Of a stretch of DNA of 64,000 bases, positions 15,222 through 48,929 are shown piece after piece; within the stretch, counting starts at the first letter, position 1; the number at the start of each line of letters is the position of its first letter. The notes beneath the pieces are model-generated. The model was not told the DNA's origin, searched no databases, and was given only the letters and a program-made list of their open reading frames with translations. The translations under genes were made by a program, and so were the position numbers. This stretch comes from Candidatus Krumholzibacteriota bacterium (GTDB lineage Bacteria > Krumholzibacteriota > Krumholzibacteriia > LZORAL124-64-63): NCBI GenBank assembly GCA_024275485.1, contig JAJRZA010000050.1, forward strand, positions 18,033 through 82,032, given 5' to 3'.

Positions 15222-16145
15222 TCAACACGGTCGGTTTTTCAGGCGATCACGGGCCACATCTCCCAACCGGCTGCCGAAGTACATCACCAGCCAGCCGAGG
15301 AGCAGTCCGGCAAATACGTCGACCACATAATGATACCGGTTGTAAACGGTGCTCATGCAAAGGAGCACGAAAATCGTTGTCATCCACCAACGATGCCGTG
15401 GGAAAAGTTTCCAGGTGTGCCACCAGGGAACCATGGAAGCGGCTACATGACTGCTGGGGAAGGCAGCCCCCAGAATGGCTCCATTTTCGTGAATATGTCG
15501 CATGATGTCAGTGAAAATCCAACCGCCCACATCCACATATCCTGCCTTGAAATACTTGGGGCCCCAGGCGGGGAACAGCGTGTAGAGCGTATAGCAGATG
15601 AGCATGGTGGTGCCGAGATCGCGAACGAAAGCCCGCACCGCATCCCACCGCTGGTCATCGGCCAGACCCTTGGCCCGCAAGGCAAGGGCGATAAATGAAA
15701 CAGCAAGGAAGTAGTAGGAAAAATAGGCAAACTCCATCAACTCGTGAAACCAGGCCCAAGGCCATACCCGCGACCATTCCAGGCTGGGTTGGAAACCGAA
15801 TATTGCCTGTTCAATTTTGATCAGGGCCGGATCAAGGCTGTTCTCGAATTCAAAAAATACCAATCCCAGGTATTCCATTTCGCCATAGAAAAATGGGAAG
15901 AGCAGCGGCAGGTAAATTTCCCCCAGCAGTCGCAATACAAAGTGACGGCTGCAACGCAGCATGGGTGGGAGGAACCAAACCCCCAGGGATAGACCAGCAT
16001 GCACAGCCATGTTAACCCATGGTTTGGGAGAAACGCCCGGTCGCAGGAAGGGATAAAAGGCACTGACCAGAAGATAGACCACCACCCAGCGGTCCATGTT
16101 CATGCGCCGGAGGGAAAGTTCAACAAGGGTTCGTCGCCAGGTCAA
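15222..16145 (-). CDS. PAP2-superfamily membrane phosphotransferase, Aur1/inositol-phosphorylceramide-synthase-like
   Basis: Multi-TM; FPAWGP, AAFPSSHV and STVYNRYHYVVD motifs; TTG start overlaps the upstream stop. Confidence 0.8.
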   Translation of the reverse strand: MTWRRTLVELSLRRMNMDRWVVVYLLVSAFYPFLRPGVSPKPWVNMAVHAGLSLGVWFLPPMLRCSRHFVLRLLGEIYLPLLFPFFYGEMEYLGLVFFEFENSLDPALIKIEQAIFGFQPSLEWSRVWPWAWFHELMEFAYFSYYFLAVSFIALALRAKGLADDQRWDAVRAFVRDLGTTMLICYTLYTLFPAWGPKYFKAGYVDVGGWIFTDIMRHIHENGAILGAAFPSSHVAASMVPWWHTWKLFPRHRWWMTTIFVLLCMSTVYNRYHYVVDVFAGLLLGWLVMYFGSRLGDVARDRLKNRPC

Positions 16146-17149
16146 AGCCAATCCTGTTCCTTGAAGAAGTCCATGGTGTTGGCAAATCCGGTGAGAGCCG
16201 AGTATTTGGGTTGCCAACCGGTTGTGGTGCTCAAAAGGGAACCGTCACAAACCCAGCCGGAGGTTTCCAGGTCCCTGATCCGGTCCGGGTTCAGGACGGG
16301 AGACGAGATGGCTCGGCCGCGACCCAGCAAAGAGCTACTGATTTTCAACAACACCAACGGCACCTGGAGAGTTCGGATTTTTTTCCCCGTGGTCGAACTC
16401 AGGATATCGGCCAGCTCCTGCCAATTGTATCCGGTGTGGAGGTCATCCACAAAATATGTTCCTGTAGCCTGGTCACACTGCATCAGGGCCACGGCGGCGG
16501 CGGCGGCATCCCAACCATGAACCAGACTCAATCCGGTCATTGATTTTCCCAGTCTGGCAGTGATGCCTCTGGTTGCTGCCTTGAAAAGGGGCAGGAATTC
16601 CTTGTCACGGGGGCCATAAAGTGAGGGCGGACGCAATATGGCACGGCGGAAACTCCATTCGGACCCGTTTACGGCCAACTCTGCGGCCAATTTGCTGCGC
16701 CCGTAGGCGGTGATGGGAGCTGGGGAGTTGCTTTCCACGGCCGGGTTATCCAGGCCTGCAGGTCCGTGGGCGGCCATGCTGGATATAAGTACAAAAGCAG
16801 GGTCGTCGCACTGCTCTTTCCAGGTCAGCTCGGCTCGGGCGAGCAAATTTTCGGTTGTTCGAACATTGGCACGTTGGTACTGCTGCTCACCGGTAGCAGT
16901 GACCAAGCCGGCACAGTGGATCAATCCGCTGCTGCCGGACAAAAATGAATCGCAGGATTTTGCATTCTCAAGATCCACTATAGTCGTCTCAATGTCTTTG
17001 CCTTCTAGCCAGCGAAGATTGCTCGTTTGCCGGATAGAGGCCCGAACGGCAAAGCCCTTGGCCAGCAGAATGTCGGCAACATGACTGCCCAAAAACCCCG
17101 AGGCCCCGGTCAGGGCGATCACGGGTTTGCTTCCGGAATGCCCGCTCAT
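16142..17149 (-). CDS. NAD-dependent epimerase/dehydratase-family reductase (ceramide reductase CerR-like by context)
   Basis: TGASGFLG, YGRSK (YxxxK) and RPPSLYGPRD motifs; coupled to the cerS-like gene. Confidence 0.8.
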   Translation of the reverse strand: MSGHSGSKPVIALTGASGFLGSHVADILLAKGFAVRASIRQTSNLRWLEGKDIETTIVDLENAKSCDSFLSGSSGLIHCAGLVTATGEQQYQRANVRTTENLLARAELTWKEQCDDPAFVLISSMAAHGPAGLDNPAVESNSPAPITAYGRSKLAAELAVNGSEWSFRRAILRPPSLYGPRDKEFLPLFKAATRGITARLGKSMTGLSLVHGWDAAAAAVALMQCDQATGTYFVDDLHTGYNWQELADILSSTTGKKIRTLQVPLVLLKISSSLLGRGRAISSPVLNPDRIRDLETSGWVCDGSLLSTTTGWQPKYSALTGFANTMDFFKEQDWL

Positions 17150-18270
17150 GCCAGGGGCATCTCGTATATGCGATAAGTTTTGTAGACCTGGGCGCCATAA
17201 CTCTCAAGAATGCGATTCATGGTCCTGTTGTCATCCAGGATCCAGGACAATTCTCCTGAGGTGATGCCTTTGGCAAACGTGGCCTGCATGGCGGTGTAGA
17301 CCAGGGCCAGGTCCACACCCTTTCTTCGATACTCGGGCAGTACACCCATCAACGGCATGCGTGCATAGTTGATATGGCGTTTGGCGAGCAGAAATTTCAG
17401 CCAACCGAAAGGATACATTTTTCCCTTCATGGGTTGAGTGGCCTGATTGAAATCCGGGAGGGTCAGGGCGAAACCGATGGGTTTATCGTCCATCTCAGCT
17501 ATCAGGACAAATTCCGGGTCAACCATGCTTTTCATATCCTTGGCGCTATAGGCAAAATCTTCGTCATCCATGGGGATGAAGCCCCAGTTTTCACTCCAGC
17601 TGCCGTTGTAAAGGGCCCGAATCAGGCTGGCTTCCTCCTGGAAGTTTTTCATGTCCAAGGGACGAATCTTCAGGCCGGGTAGGTTGATGATGCGGTCAAT
17701 AAAACGTTGAATTTTCTCAGGCAGGATGCCGTCGGTCTCCAAGTGCCAGGCCAGAAGATCCTTGGCTTGGCTCATGCCGAATTCCTCAAAGTTTGTGGGG
17801 TAGTATTCCGGATTGTAGGGCATGCCCACCACCGGACGGTTGCGCAGGCCTTCAATCTGCACACCAAACCAGTCATGATTGGAGGTGAAACAACCAGGAC
17901 CGCGCATGGTGGTCATGCCTCTGGCGGCAATCCAGTCGCAGGCTGTTTGCAACAGCAGGCCGGCCAGCTGGGGGTTGTCGTCAGCTTCATAGAAACCGAA
18001 GAACCCTACTTTTTCATGGTGATGGTCGTTGTGGTACTTGTCCACCGCAGTGGCGATGCGCCCGACCACTGAGCCGGCGTTGTCGCGAGCCACCCAGAGT
18101 TCGGCTTCGGCATGGTTGAAAAAAGGGTTCTTCTGACGATCGAAGAAGTGTTTCAAATCGTCCAGCAGGGGGTAGACATAGTTTGGATCGTCATGGTAAA
18201 TGTGGTAGGGAAGTTGCAGGAAATCATCAAGCCCCTGTTTGTTTTGGACCTTGGAAATGGTGAACGACAT
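17146..18270 (-). CDS. cerS: GNAT-family N-acyltransferase, bacterial ceramide synthase-like
   Basis: GFFGFYE, MRGP, MPYNPEYY, ENWGFIP, GVLPEYRRKG and ELSWILDDN motifs; RBS AGGAGG; directly downstream of spt. Confidence 0.72.
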   Translation of the reverse strand: MSFTISKVQNKQGLDDFLQLPYHIYHDDPNYVYPLLDDLKHFFDRQKNPFFNHAEAELWVARDNAGSVVGRIATAVDKYHNDHHHEKVGFFGFYEADDNPQLAGLLLQTACDWIAARGMTTMRGPGCFTSNHDWFGVQIEGLRNRPVVGMPYNPEYYPTNFEEFGMSQAKDLLAWHLETDGILPEKIQRFIDRIINLPGLKIRPLDMKNFQEEASLIRALYNGSWSENWGFIPMDDEDFAYSAKDMKSMVDPEFVLIAEMDDKPIGFALTLPDFNQATQPMKGKMYPFGWLKFLLAKRHINYARMPLMGVLPEYRRKGVDLALVYTAMQATFAKGITSGELSWILDDNRTMNRILESYGAQVYKTYRIYEMPLA

Positions 18271-18295
18271 GTTGCCTCCTGAATCCTTCTTTTGC

Positions 18296-18322
18296 AAAAA
18301 TGGGCGGCCCATTGGACCGCCC
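18296..18322 (-). terminator. Intra-operon terminator-like hairpin between spt and cerS
   Basis: Minus strand GGGCGGTCC-AAT-GGGCCGCCC followed by ATTTTT. Confidence 0.5.
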
Positions 18323-18354
18323 GAAATTCCCACTGACCGCAGAAAGGGCGGAGT

Positions 18355-19539
18355 CTAGCTCTCCACAATTTCCAGCTCGCGGCCCACACGGGCCATGATG
18401 TCCATGGCTTTGTGGATCTCATCTTCGGTGTGGGTGGCCATCAAACTCAATCGGATCAGGGCGTTGCCTTTTTCCACCGCCGGGCTGACCACCGGGTTTA
18501 CAAAAACACCTTCTTCGGCCATGCGGCTGCACATCTGGAAGGCAGCCATGTCGTCGCCGACCACCGCCGGGATGATGGGTGTCTCGCTGGGACCAGTATC
18601 GAAGCCGGCTTCCTTCAGACGCTCGCGCATGAGGTCGTTGTTGTGCCAGAGGGCATCGTGCCGCCAGGTTTCTTCAATCATCACATCAATTGCCGCAGAT
18701 ACCGAAGCCACCGATGCGGGGGGCATGCTGGCCGAGAACATCAGGGCCCGGCTGTGGTGCTGGATGAAATGCATGACATCTTCGTCGCCTGCAACAAAGC
18801 CACCCACGGAGGCAAGAGACTTGCTGAAGGTTCCCATAATCAGACCAGCTTCGTCGGTGAGCCCGAAGTGGTTGCAGGTGCCACGGCCGTGGTCGCCCAA
18901 TACGCCAACACCATGGGCGTCGTCCACCATCAGGAAAGCATCGTATTTTTGGCAAAGTTTGACGATTTCCGGGAGTTTGGCAATGTCGCCCTCCATGGAA
19001 AAAACACCGTCGACGATGACCAGCTTGTTGGAATCATTCTCGCTTTTGAGGACCAGCTCCAGGTTTTCCATGTCGTTGTGACGGAATTTGCGCACATCGG
19101 CAAAGCTGAGGCGGGCGCCGTCGATGATTGAAGCATGATCGGTGCGATCGACGATGATGGTTTCCTTGCGGGTCACCAAAGAGCTCAGCACTCCCTGGTT
19201 GACCATGAAACCGGTGGAGAAAACCAGGGCTTTTTCTTTGCCCACCAGATTGGCCAGCTTTTCTTCCAGCTCGATATGAATGTCCAGGGTTCCATTGAGG
19301 AAGCGGCTGCCCGCACAACCAGTGCCGTATTTTGCCACAGCGGCGGAGGCGGCTTCCTTCACTTTGGGATGGTTGGTCAAACCCAGGTAGTTGTTGCTAC
19401 CCAACATGATGATTTCCCGCCCTTGATACTTGACGGTATTTTCCTGGGCAGATTCAATTACTCGAAAATAATTGTAGAAATCAGCAGCCATCAAATCCTT
19501 GGCTGTCGTGAAGTTGTTGACCTTGTCCAGCAGACCCAT
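18355..19539 (-). CDS. spt: Serine palmitoyltransferase (alpha-oxoamine synthase, PLP-dependent)
   Basis: MLGSNNYLGL, GTGCAGSRFLNGT, DGVFSMEGD, DDAH and the PLP-Lys motif GTFSKS; clustered with cerS/cerR-like genes. Confidence 0.82.
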   Translation of the reverse strand: MGLLDKVNNFTTAKDLMAADFYNYFRVIESAQENTVKYQGREIIMLGSNNYLGLTNHPKVKEAASAAVAKYGTGCAGSRFLNGTLDIHIELEEKLANLVGKEKALVFSTGFMVNQGVLSSLVTRKETIIVDRTDHASIIDGARLSFADVRKFRHNDMENLELVLKSENDSNKLVIVDGVFSMEGDIAKLPEIVKLCQKYDAFLMVDDAHGVGVLGDHGRGTCNHFGLTDEAGLIMGTFSKSLASVGGFVAGDEDVMHFIQHHSRALMFSASMPPASVASVSAAIDVMIEETWRHDALWHNNDLMRERLKEAGFDTGPSETPIIPAVVGDDMAAFQMCSRMAEEGVFVNPVVSPAVEKGNALIRLSLMATHTEDEIHKAMDIMARVGRELEIVES

Positions 19540-19649
19540 GGGCACCATTCCTTGCAATACAAAACCAGCGAGGGCAATGGATGCCCCGCGCGATGGTAAC
19601 AGGACTTTGAAAATAGCTTCTAACCTTAGATACGACAACTAGAAATCAC

Positions 19650-20210
19650 CTAAAAGATTTGGGCCTCGAATACCCTGAACTTAGCTCCCTGCTGCCATTC
19701 CAGGCGGCCCAATCCTGCTTTGAGGGCCAACTGGGTCAGGGTGGTGTCCAGATCCCATCCCTGTTCCGTGGCCACCTGGGGTAAAAATACCGCCTGTCGA
19801 CCATTTTTCTCCATCAAGATACCGTGCCTCCCAACCTGAATTTCCAGGTATGACGGCACATCCCGCAGGGGGGTGAGCACTGAAACCTCGATCTCCAGAC
19901 CGGATAATTCATGGACTTGAAGCGGTGGAAATCGGGGATCACCCACCGCGGCGCTGCGCCCGTTGTCGGCCACGGCCGTTGCCAGGGGTTTGAAACCCTC
20001 GATGTAGCCGATGCATCCCCTCAGCCGTTTCTGTGAAGTCAGAGTTACAAAGGCTCCTCGATTTTCCGTCAAAAGGCCATCAAGAGGCAATCCGGCTGCA
20101 TCAGCTAGGATTTGCACATCAGGGGGAGGGTCGCCAATGGCTGCGGCGGCCACCGCCTGCCGGGCCACTTCCTGCAGAAATGTCTGTTGTTGTTCGGTCA
20201 GTTGGCTCAT
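19650..20210 (-). CDS. amrA: AmmeMemoRadiSam system protein A (AMMECR1 domain)
   Basis: GAFVTL..LRGCIG, DPRFPP, EVSVLT, VFLPQV and LALKAG motifs. Confidence 0.9.
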   Translation of the reverse strand: MSQLTEQQQTFLQEVARQAVAAAAIGDPPPDVQILADAAGLPLDGLLTENRGAFVTLTSQKRLRGCIGYIEGFKPLATAVADNGRSAAVGDPRFPPLQVHELSGLEIEVSVLTPLRDVPSYLEIQVGRHGILMEKNGRQAVFLPQVATEQGWDLDTTLTQLALKAGLGRLEWQQGAKFRVFEAQIF

Positions 20211-21076
20211 GTGATCTGCTTTCCATCGGTCAGCAACAAGGTTGCGTAACTGACACTGAATGAGTAGTCGCCATCTTTGTCTGCGCTGCGGCCATAATCC
20301 AGCAGAGCTGCTTCGTATCCCGAAGGTGGCCCGTCGCCAAGGGCCACACAGCAGGCGGCCAGGCCACACATGGTGATGCCCGTGTCCCGTCCATATTGCA
20401 ACAGTCCGTCCACATCGCCGCCCAAAATTTTCAGGATGGCACCGGAATCAAGCCTTTCCAAGGCCATGGGAACATCTTCGGTGAATGGAACATAGCCAAA
20501 AGAGGGGCCGTAGTGGGTGAAATCGCTGGAGACCAGAAGCAGGTTGTTTTCACCCATGGTTTGCTTCAAAACCAGGCCGGCTCGGGTCAGGGCGGCTGGG
20601 CTCGACATGGGCACGAGCATCGGCACAATGGTCGGCGAAACATCAGACCAGGTCCGTTGGATAAAAGGCAGGACAATTTCGATGGCATGTTCTTCGGCGT
20701 GGGCGGCAGGGTTCAGGGAAAAACCGGTTTCTTTGGCTAATCGGTTCACCATTTCAGTGTCGATGAGAACCTCCCCGAGAGGGGTGGCAAAGGCTGATTC
20801 CTCCGGCAGGGCTATTTCATTCAAGGCAACCCGATGATTTGGCGCCAGAATGATGATGTTGTCAGGCCGCCAATCCCCCAAAAGACCAAACAAGCGCCCG
20901 GCCACAGGGCCGCAGTGTACATGTCCTGCGTGGGGTGTGACGGCCAGCCAAGGCTTCCCAACAGGCATTTGGGCGGGATCTGATCCTGCGAGGAAGCGAT
21001 CCACCGAAGCGGACAAATCATTTGGATCAGCCGGATACCAGGAGCCGCTCAAGACGGGAGGTCGTACCATTGTCAT
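20207..21076 (-). CDS. amrB: AmmeMemoRadiSam system protein B (MEMO1 family)
   Basis: PHAGH, APNH, EHAIE, SSDFTHYG, TMCG and VSYA motifs. Confidence 0.9.
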   Translation of the reverse strand: MTMVRPPVLSGSWYPADPNDLSASVDRFLAGSDPAQMPVGKPWLAVTPHAGHVHCGPVAGRLFGLLGDWRPDNIIILAPNHRVALNEIALPEESAFATPLGEVLIDTEMVNRLAKETGFSLNPAAHAEEHAIEIVLPFIQRTWSDVSPTIVPMLVPMSSPAALTRAGLVLKQTMGENNLLLVSSDFTHYGPSFGYVPFTEDVPMALERLDSGAILKILGGDVDGLLQYGRDTGITMCGLAACCVALGDGPPSGYEAALLDYGRSADKDGDYSFSVSYATLLLTDGKQIT

Positions 21077-21187
21077 CAATCTCTCCCTATTTGGAGTTGT
21101 TGTGAAAAATCCCTGTTGGAAACCCACGGTTTGGACTCTATCATATATTCAAGTGCACACAACACCCACTGCCACAAGGAGGGCAAG

Positions 21188-47543: not shown

Positions 47544-48267
47544 CCACGGTGAATCTACCTGAGATCGAATTCCCTGCCGGATTGTGCCATTTTGTGGCCA
47601 CCCCCATTGGAAATCTGGCCGACGTGAGTTTGCGCGCCTTGGCCGTATTGGCCGCTGCCGATGTGGTCTATTGCGAAGACACTCGTCATACCCGGCGTCT
47701 GTTGAATCGCTACGATTTGAAATGCCATCTGATGAGTTATCATGACCATAACAAACTGAAGGCCGTGCCCCAAATCGTTGATCGGTTGCGGGCCGGCGAA
47801 AAAGTGGTGGTTGTTAGCGACGCGGGGATGCCTTGCATTTCGGACCCTGGTTTTACCCTGGCCCGTCGTCTGCTGGAGGAAGAATTGCCCTGGACCGTTA
47901 TTCCCGGGCCGAGCAGTACCCTGGCCGCGCTGGTTCTTTCGGGATTTTCGCCTGACCGATTCCTTTTTTGGGGTATCTTCCCCGTAAGAAAGGCAAGCGG
48001 ACCACTTTTCTGACGAGCGCCCTGGAAGAGCCCGGCACCGTCCTGTTACTGGAATCCTGCCACCGGATCACCTCCACTTTGGAGATTCTCGCGGAGCTTG
48101 CTCCGACCAGGATTATGGCCGTGGCACGGGAGATCACCAAGTTGCACGAAGAAACTTTGCGCGGCACCGCCGCCGATTTGCTCAAGGTCATGATTGGCCG
48201 ACGACTCAAAGGTGAACTGGTCCTGGTTCTGCAGGGCCAAGCCTCAGCACGCGATCCGGAGGAATGA
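47540..48267 (+). pseudogene. rsmI: 16S rRNA C1402 2'-O-methyltransferase split by a 1-nt deletion in a T-run (pseudogene, phase variant or sequencing error)
   Basis: N-half ATPIGNL, CEDTR, SDAGMP in 47540..48013; C-half GYLPRK, ESCHR, REITKLHEE, KGE in 47968..48267. One extra T at 47964-47969 restores F-L-F-L-G-Y. Confidence 0.88.
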
Positions 48268-48929
48268 TGGATATCAATCAATTCAAACAAGACTTCCGCA
48301 AGGGTGTGCGGCCGGTCGTTCTCATACTTGACCGATTGGGAATGTCTCCCCTGACCGTGTCCATCCTGGGCCTGGTGATCACCGCTGTTTCGGGTTGGAT
48401 CATTGCCAAAGGAGCCCTTTTTGGCGGTGCCCTGGTTTTTTTGCTGGGTTCTGGATTCGACATGCTTGATGGTGATCTTGCCCGGATTCAAGGAACCGTT
48501 TCCAGGCGTGGGGCCTTCCTTGATTCATGTTTTGACCGTTTGGGCGAAGCTTTCCTCTTTGCAGGTCTGACCTGGTATTTCGCAGGCCTGCCCCAGGAGG
48601 TGGCCCGGCTGCCACTGGTCCTGATCACGGCCACGGTGGTGGGCAGCCTGACCACCAGTTACGTTCGCGCCCGGGCTGAAGGAGTGGGGCAAACCTGTTT
48701 TGTAGGCTTCCTGCAACGAACCGAACGGGTCATCCTGCTCACCATTGGCTTGTTGCTGGGTCGATGGGCTCTGGTTCCTGTTCTGGCCTTCCTGGCCATA
48801 GCCACCCTGGGCACCACCGTTCAGCGAATTGTTCATGTGGCAGCCAAACTGCCCGGTCCCGGCGACCCGCAGGATACTGAAGATTCAGATTCAGACGAAA
48901 CAGAAGATGCAGTGGAGGAGACCCCGTGA
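48264..48929 (+). CDS. CDP-alcohol phosphatidyltransferase, PIP-synthase/PgsA-like
   Basis: DMLDGDLAR...GAFLDSCFDR, SYVRARAE and QRTER motifs. Confidence 0.85.
   Translation: MMDINQFKQDFRKGVRPVVLILDRLGMSPLTVSILGLVITAVSGWIIAKGALFGGALVFLLGSGFDMLDGDLARIQGTVSRRGAFLDSCFDRLGEAFLFAGLTWYFAGLPQEVARLPLVLITATVVGSLTTSYVRARAEGVGQTCFVGFLQRTERVILLTIGLLLGRWALVPVLAFLAIATLGTTVQRIVHVAAKLPGPGDPQDTEDSDSDETEDAVEETP

Follow-up and report, generated by a model that had tools for sequence, protein, structure and literature searches.

Dozens of bacterial phyla are now predicted to make sphingolipids. To our knowledge, genes for the conversion of ceramide into a polar membrane lipid have been identified in two cases only, the inositol lipids of Bacteroides and the phosphoglycerate route of Caulobacter. 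Inositol phosphorylceramide itself is typical of fungi, plants and protozoa. The bacterial route to ceramide, which consists of a serine palmitoyltransferase (Spt), a GNAT-type ceramide synthase (bCerS) and an SDR-type reductase (CerR), has already been published together with its wide predicted distribution (PMC11087976, PMC11334938), and its genes are described as often clustered (PMC11334938). In Bacteroides thetaiotaomicron, BT_1522 is reported as an AUR1 homologue whose deletion abolishes phosphoinositol dihydroceramide (PI-DHC), or inositol phosphoceramide (PMC9246714, PMC8791184). The stretch analysed here, which we call the window, is a 64,000-nucleotide part of contig JAJRZA010000050.1 from the 3.98-Mb, 96% complete metagenome-assembled genome (MAG) of a Candidatus Krumholzibacteriota bacterium (GCA_024275485.1), and it carries an spt gene followed by a GNAT gene, an SDR gene and a gene for a membrane protein of the PAP2 superfamily. 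We consider, with a probability of about 0.65, that these four genes form one operon and that this operon makes a phosphosphingolipid by transfer of a head group to ceramide.

The four open reading frames (ORFs) lie head to tail on the minus strand between positions 15222 and 19539, in the order spt, GNAT, SDR and PAP2:

18355..19539, minus strand: spt, 394 aa; stop at 18355 and ATG at 19539, with a second in-frame ATG at 19548
17146..18270, minus strand: bCerS-type GNAT N-acyltransferase, 374 aa, predicted soluble; named from PF00583 and homology to YghO
16142..17149, minus strand: CerR-type extended SDR (putative 3-keto reductase), 335 aa; named from PF01370 and homology to 'epi'
15222..16145, minus strand: Aur1-like PAP2_3 integral membrane protein, predicted ceramide phospho-head-group transferase, 307 aa

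The first-pass annotation of this DNA had described a co-oriented four-gene cluster in which the last three genes have overlapping stop and start codons, and the ORF coordinates bear this out. The stop codon of the GNAT gene and the start codon of the SDR gene share the sequence ATGA, while the stop codon of the SDR gene and the start codon of the PAP2 gene share TTGA; translation of the PAP2 gene is coupled to that of the reductase gene. The sequence AGGAGG is found 5 nt upstream of the GNAT start codon. The PAP2 gene starts with TTG; in-frame ATGs follow at 16103 and 16097, at distances of 42 and 48 nt, and the database entry for this protein also has the 307-aa form. All of the motifs quoted in the same annotation were located, GTFSKS in Spt and FPSSH and RYHY..D in the PAP2 protein.

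Sequence comparison identifies the product of gene 1 as a Bacteroidota-type serine palmitoyltransferase. It matched the Pfam family Aminotran_1_2 (205 bits) and carries GTFSKS at residue 236, the lysine of which we take to be the pyridoxal phosphate (PLP)-binding lysine of alpha-oxoamine synthases (AOS). The best NCBIfam model was NF047600 SerpalmtaseCFB, which is of the Bacteroidota type, with 582.9 bits, and the next was the BioF/Kbl subfamily model with 432.6 bits. Comparison with the solved AOS of the PDB showed that the best match was the Sphingobacterium-type SPT (3a2b/8guh, 446.7 bits), followed by BioF/Kbl (313 bits), Kbl (281 bits), proteobacterial SPT (about 251 bits), cysteate-C-fatty acyltransferase (242 bits) and BioF (221 bits). 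The window spt was also the best match in the source genome when the Spt of Escherichia coli was used as a query, and the sole other AOS of this genome, encoded on contig C79, is a glycine C-acetyltransferase (Kbl, 581.8 bits for a cut-off of 460). Since SPT models and structures rank first, by 130-150 bits, and since the genome has a separate Kbl, the similarity ranking places the AOS of the window with Spt and not with BioF/Kbl, in agreement with its original naming.

The comparison of genes 2 and 3 with bCerS and CerR was made through the E. coli BL21(DE3) cluster, used as a stand-in, in which yghO (ECD_02850) is listed with CC_1154 as 'aca' and ECD_02852 is listed with CC_1164 as 'epi' (PMC9386255). 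The GNAT protein matched the Pfam family Acetyltransf_1 (PF00583, 34 bits) and none of the NCBIfam models. It was 35% identical to YghO of E. coli BL21 over the full length (residues 1-370, E 1e-79), and when YghO was searched back, the GNAT of the window was the only match in the source genome. Its matches in the ESM Atlas were generic 'N-acetyltransferase' clusters only (Planctomycetota, Bacteroidota and Chloroflexota), and a plain sequence search of the PDB gave nothing useful. The SDR protein matched the Pfam family Epimerase (PF01370, 80 bits) and carries the glycine motif of NAD(P) binding (GASGFLG, at residue 15) and the YxxxK motif (YGRSK, at residue 149). Over 318 aa, it shares 31% identity with the 'epi' protein of E. 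coli BL21 (E 2e-41), and when 'epi' was searched back, the SDR of the window was its best match in the source genome (131 bits vs 70 bits). On the evidence of this homology, and of these only and best matches in the genome, the GNAT and the SDR are members of the bCerS and CerR families, respectively, the ceramide-synthase and reductase families to which they had first been assigned. CerR has been described as NDUFA9-like (PMC11087976), and the likeness of the SDR to the NUEM/NDUFA9-type subunits of complex I in the PDB was weak (24.5-24.8 bits, E about 1e-4) and ranked below many sugar epimerases. No hydrophobic stretch typical of a membrane span was found in Spt, the GNAT or the SDR, which fits the description of the bacterial ceramide enzymes as soluble or peripheral proteins (PMC11087976).

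Gene 4, by its motifs and its modelled fold, most likely encodes a head-group transferase and not a phosphatase. The signature of PAP2 phosphatases is made up of the motifs C1 (KxxxxxxRP), C2 (PSGH) and C3 (SRxxxxxHxxxD), of which C1 and the SR of C3 are needed for the binding of phosphate. Transferases of the Aur1 type are without the C1 motif, as are the sphingomyelin synthases and SMSr, which use a His/His/Asp chemistry. The PAP2 protein of the window scored 63.6 bits against PAP2_3 (PF14378, cut-off 27) and 37.7 bits against PAP2 (PF01569). Its C2 motif is PSSH at residue 230, within AAFPSSH, and its C3 motif is HYVVD at residue 272, within NRYHYVVD. Neither the C1 motif KxxxxxxRP nor the full SRxxxxxHxxxD was found in the protein, C3 being reduced to HxxxD. 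In an alignment of 79 sequences of the family, reaching down to 24% identity, residues P230, S231, H233, H272 and D276 were invariant, and C1 and the SR of C3 were not among the conserved columns.

The AlphaFold2 model of the PAP2 protein (pLDDT 93.4, pTM 0.91) showed about eight long helices. Only two fold matches in the PDB had an E value of 0.001 or less, and both were yeast Aur1 (9vj4 and 9ivc, 286-310 columns, TM score 0.56-0.62); the next were PgpB of Bacillus subtilis, human SMSr and LpxE, with E values of 0.03-0.08. The family profile aligned with Aur1 over positions 15-280 (E 3.5e-8), placing AFPSSH on AFPSLH and HYvvD on HYFVD, while it aligned with phosphatases over the C-terminal 60-80 or so positions only. 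The Aur1-like character proposed for this protein was thus upheld by three results, the score above the cut-off of the PAP2_3 hidden Markov model (HMM), the absence of C1 and the rank of yeast Aur1 as nearest relative by both fold and profile. Lysines and arginines are clustered at the N-terminus, at residues 64-68, 157-175 and 246-252 and at the C-terminus, a distribution that would put C2 and C3 on the opposite face of the membrane, and the active site is presumably on the outer (periplasmic) face of the inner membrane.

We then compared the locus across a sample of 201 genomes of the phylum, in which the host family is designated f1. The PAP2 gene was found in 90 of the 201 genomes, that is, in 80 of 86 in f1, in 7 of 9 in f6, in 1 of 12 in f8, in 1 of 42 in f4 and in none of the other families. 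The GNAT gene was found in 88 genomes, among them 76 of 86 in f1, 7 of 9 in f6, 2 of 12 in f8 and 2 of 23 in f5. The arrangement spt-GNAT-SDR-PAP2 was present in one order and on one strand in all 20 of the f1 loci compared (one per genus); in one of them spt is followed by an insert of 1.6 kb, and another shows a partial Spt match only. This conservation of order and strand in 20 loci out of 20 shows that the arrangement is not due to chance. In f6 and f8, the coordinates placed a 37-42% identical GNAT about 1.1-1.3 kb upstream of a 30-33% identical PAP2 protein in 8 of 8 genomes.

Fusions of the SDR with the PAP2 protein were considered as Rosetta-stone evidence and rejected. Many relatives have frames of 660-690 aa over PAP2, but in locus L024 the match to the SDR and that to the PAP2 protein share a single base and are therefore in different frames, so that these long frames are alternative frames and not fusions. 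One protein of 676 aa (P0244) consists of an SDR part with 45% identity joined to a PAP2 part with 41% identity. It is a single member, its residues 75-95 look garbled, and it was not counted, as it may be a frameshift artefact.

Scanning 185,579 species genomes with the PAP2 family alignment gave at least 596 relatives, of which the best 80 were kept. A homologue of Spt, the GNAT or the SDR was located within 4 kb of the PAP2 gene in 64 of these 80, and all three were present in 23. Among the best 80, a ceramide-gene partner was found at 11 of 11 loci from Verrucomicrobiota, 8 of 9 from Gemmatimonadota, 5 of 6 from Cloacimonadota and 26 of 35 from Bacteroidota; the Bacteroidota loci with a partner mostly have the PAP2 gene adjoining a GNAT gene. 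Single linked records came from Planctomycetota, Acidobacteriota, Eisenbacteria, Lentisphaeria and a 'delta proteobacterium'. The linkage of the PAP2 gene with ceramide genes is not confined to this lineage and extends over about ten phylum-level labels. The first-pass annotation had concluded that this lineage makes phosphosphingolipids by a eukaryote-like head-group transfer. The likeness to Aur1 and the conserved linkage support such a transfer. The idea applies beyond this lineage, given the number of phylum-level labels, and it has an experimentally supported bacterial precedent in BT_1522.

Two further observations concern the relatives. At nine loci (L055, L068, L070, L074, L088, L089, L094, L106 and L119), the order is spt-SDR-PAP2 with a convergent GNAT gene just downstream; eight of these carry labels of the Verrucomicrobiota type and L119 is labelled only 'metagenome genome assembly, chromosome'. 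At locus L092 (6752-7675), from a Prevotellaceae MAG, the PAP2 homologue beside Spt and the GNAT has in-frame stops and may be a pseudogene or an assembly error.

In the pathway that we infer from the four genes, Spt would condense L-serine with an acyl thioester to give 3-ketosphinganine, the YghO/bCerS-type GNAT would N-acylate the 3-ketosphinganine, and the CerR-type SDR would reduce the 3-keto group to give (dihydro)ceramide. The second and third steps are placed in this order provisionally, the order of acylation and reduction in the bacterial ceramide route being debated in the literature. In the fourth step, a glycerophospholipid would donate its phospho-alcohol head group, which the eight-helix PAP2_3 enzyme would attach to ceramide at the C1 hydroxyl, with His233, His272 and Asp276 as the predicted catalytic residues and with release of diacylglycerol. 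If phosphatidylinositol (PI) is the donor in this lineage, the product would be inositol phosphorylceramide (IPC).

The gene content of the source genome points to PI as, most likely, the favoured donor, because MIPS, a PIP-synthase-like enzyme and a PgpA-family phosphatase are encoded, by scattered genes, while HMM searches of this genome found no Psd and no PgsA or PssA above cut-off. A possible supplier of the donor lipid is encoded in the window, outside the operon:

48264..48929, plus strand: CDP-alcohol phosphatidyltransferase, PIP-synthase-like according to its NCBIfam scores

This gene scored 135 bits against NF040950 (cut-off 180), 126 bits against NF045883 PIPSynth (cut-off 170) and 90.6 bits against the BT1523-type model NF052561, and only 22.7 bits against pgsA. 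Given that the PAP2 protein is a transferase, we put the chance of an inositol head group modestly above even. Dependence on inositol phospholipids may be unusually strong in this phylum.

Two other loci of the source genome touch upon the head group. The MIPS gene (contig C28; locus L045, 8416-9720, minus strand) adjoins genes for a bacterial sugar transferase and a GFO/IDH/MocA oxidoreductase. This neighbourhood was considered as a link to lipids and rejected, there being no lipid genes beside it, and since MIPS lies beside a sugar-transferase gene and not beside lipid genes, inositol may also feed a glycan. On contig C18 (96278-99334; locus L046, 5608-8334), a gene for a 320-aa CDP-alcohol phosphatidyltransferase is flanked by genes for a nucleotidyltransferase and for a HisC/CobD-type PLP enzyme.

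Several results weigh against an operon that makes an inositol-type phosphosphingolipid by head-group transfer. The likeness to Aur1 is remote (17-19% identity and a root-mean-square deviation of 6.8 Å at TM scores of 0.56-0.62), and when the sequence of the PAP2 protein itself was searched against the PDB, nothing was returned at an E value of 1 or less. The likeness of the GNAT and the SDR to bCerS and CerR was established with the E. coli homologues and not with the Caulobacter sequences. No ceramide gene was present within 4 kb at 16 of the 80 loci, which are the closest matches to the query rather than a random sample and are relatives that are not independent of one another; at 13 of these 16 the flanking sequence is shorter than 4 kb on one side or both, and at three it extends to 8 kb on each side. 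As for the donor, the absence of genes for phosphatidylethanolamine (PE) and phosphatidylglycerol (PG) was established by HMM searches of a MAG that is 96% complete. MIPS and the PIP-synthase-like enzyme were found in 184 and 195 of the 201 genomes of the phylum, respectively, families without the operon included; being phylum-wide, they give no specific signal of co-occurrence with the operon and were rejected as a phylogenetic profile for the head group. To these are added the counter-evidence from the BT_1522-type model, the PAP2_C domain, the contig C18 genes and the Spt model, each given below with the alternative that it favours.

The alternative that survives best keeps the same chemistry and changes the head group: the PAP2 protein would be a ceramide phosphoethanolamine or phosphoglycerol synthase, similar to SMSr or to the kinetoplastid sphingolipid synthases, with PE or PG as the donor. 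We regard this explanation as possible but rather unlikely. The PAP2 protein is not of the BT_1522 type, as it scored 19.0 bits against the BT_1522 model NF052609 (cut-off 480), over the C2-C3 region only, and 9 of the 9 relatives tested from other phyla matched no curated NCBIfam model, NF052609 included. Its score against PAP2_C (PF14360, the sphingomyelin-synthase domain) is barely below the cut-off (26.8 vs 27). Of the 80 best loci, 35 are from Bacteroidota, in which ethanolamine phosphoceramide is described as abundant (PMC8791184). The three genes of contig C18 could, moreover, form a CDP-activated route to another head group, for example phosphoethanolamine, and might thus supply a head group of the ethanolamine type. 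On the other side, the genome yielded no Psd and no PgsA or PssA above cut-off, while it encodes MIPS, a PIP-synthase-like enzyme and PgpA, and among solved structures the closest match, by fold and by profile, is an IPC synthase, SMSr being fourth among the fold matches (E 0.046).

The PAP2 protein could also be a lipid phosphate phosphatase, acting on ceramide-1-phosphate, on a sphingoid-base phosphate or on a substrate of the PgpB, LpxE or UppP type, in which case it would trim or recycle lipids without any transfer. The PAP2 superfamily consists mostly of phosphatases, and the match to PF01569, the presence of PgpB, LpxE and acid phosphatases among the fold and profile matches and the annotation of relatives as 'membrane-associated phospholipid phosphatase' all agree with such a function, with which linkage to ceramide genes would be equally compatible. 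This explanation appears improbable, however, when the motifs and the alignments are considered. The C1 motif and the SR of C3 are missing from the protein and are not conserved in the family as a whole, and phosphatases align with the C-terminal motifs only, whereas Aur1 aligns over nearly the whole protein. A terminal phosphatase would also seem less economical in a biosynthetic operon that is free of any kinase.

That no sphingolipid is made at all, the AOS condensing cysteate, glycine or alanine to give sulfonolipid-like or 1-deoxy lipids and the PAP2 gene being an unrelated neighbour, is very improbable, for although Spt is under the equivalog cut-off of NF047600 (582.9 vs 640) and the substrate choice of an AOS is not reliably readable from its sequence, the cysteate-C-fatty acyltransferase scored 242 bits vs 447 for SPT, Kbl is encoded elsewhere in the genome, and the PAP2 linkage is kept across phyla, while a head-group transferase would need a C1 hydroxyl, which is found only in a base derived from serine.

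The intergenic gap between spt and the GNAT gene is 84 nt and contains one further feature:

18302..18322, minus strand: GC-rich hairpin with 9 pairs (8 of them G-C) and a loop of 3, followed by the T run ATTTTTG

The hairpin is possibly an internal attenuator or an mRNA-stability element, and as an attenuator it could set the ratio of Spt to the downstream enzymes. A hairpin with a T run, differing in sequence, was present in the same gap at the loci L023, L026, L032, L040 and L041. Comparison of the relatives showed a hairpin in gaps of at least 70 nt and no hairpin in gaps of 13-43 nt. Over the region as a whole, terminator-like sites were not in excess (7 vs 8.7 in shuffled sequences). Directly upstream of spt, on the same strand, are an AMMECR1 gene (19650-20210, minus strand, 164 bits) and a Memo gene (20207-21127, minus strand, 177 bits). 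In tblastn searches, both were upstream of spt at 18 of 20 family loci, Memo alone at one and neither at one.

Head-group transfer to ceramide by the product of a four-gene operon would have consequences beyond this genome. A compact operon with the whole path amounts to a directly testable four-gene cassette, and the subfamily of gene 4 provides many uncultured lineages with a named candidate for their missing head-group enzyme. Should PI be the donor, inositol phosphorylceramide would be made well outside the gut Bacteroidota. We also advance, as a tentative and doubtful extension, the idea that the subfamily is the general phosphosphingolipid synthase of bacteria outside the BT_1522 type. 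In bacteria of the Krumholzibacteria type, it would then act in a membrane whose recognisable head-group machinery is inositol-based, with PI and IPC and without detectable PgsA, PssA or Psd, a make-up otherwise linked to eukaryotes and archaea. The lineages that depend on such a general synthase would be Verrucomicrobiota, Gemmatimonadota, Cloacimonadota, Planctomycetota, Acidobacteriota and many Bacteroidota, and the missing ethanolamine-phosphoceramide synthase of Bacteroidota might be one of its members; a BLAST search with the Drosophila enzyme is reported to have found no ethanolamine-phosphoceramide synthase in B. thetaiotaomicron (PMC8791184).

Comparison with the ceramide pathway of Caulobacter crescentus and E. 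coli BL21(DE3) shows the same set of an AOS, a GNAT of about 375 aa and an extended SDR, while the Spt of the window is of the Bacteroidota type and not of the proteobacterial one. The clusters of Rhodobacteria described in PMC9386255 have dedicated genes for an acyl carrier protein (ACP) and an acyl-ACP synthetase, and none was seen in this operon. In Caulobacter, ceramide is decorated through at least six further gene products, and no mention of PAP2 turned up when the text of that report was searched (PMC11324152). In the open-access literature searched, subscription papers and supplements not included, we found no description of a PAP2 or Aur1-like gene coupled to ceramide genes and no name for the subfamily.

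Among eukaryotic enzymes, yeast Aur1, the catalytic subunit of IPC synthase (PDB 9vj3/9vj4 and 9ivc), resembles gene 4 in its PAP2_3 domain and in the alignment of AFPSxH and HYxVD, and differs from it in length (401 aa vs 307 aa) and in having been solved as a complex with Kei1 (9ivc). The animal sphingomyelin synthases and SMSr are more distant than Aur1, with TM scores of 0.42-0.48 for the match of rank 4. The closest bacterial parallel is BT_1522, likewise an Aur1-like enzyme of the membrane, from which dihydroceramide receives a phospho-head group, an activity that is predicted for gene 4. The two differ in sequence, the search with NF052609 giving 17.5 bits in the source genome and, in the control, matching only B. 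thetaiotaomicron, and they differ in setting, BT_1522 being located in an inositol-lipid operon and gene 4 in a ceramide operon with the inositol genes scattered. The PI route of B. thetaiotaomicron is described as MIPS, PIP synthase and a PgpA-type phosphatase (PMC9246714), and the same three functions were found in the source genome. The present finding overturns nothing and extends two results from 2022: what is new is a distinct, uncurated PAP2_3 subfamily and the arrangement of its gene in a ceramide operon, and the principle is known from BT_1522.

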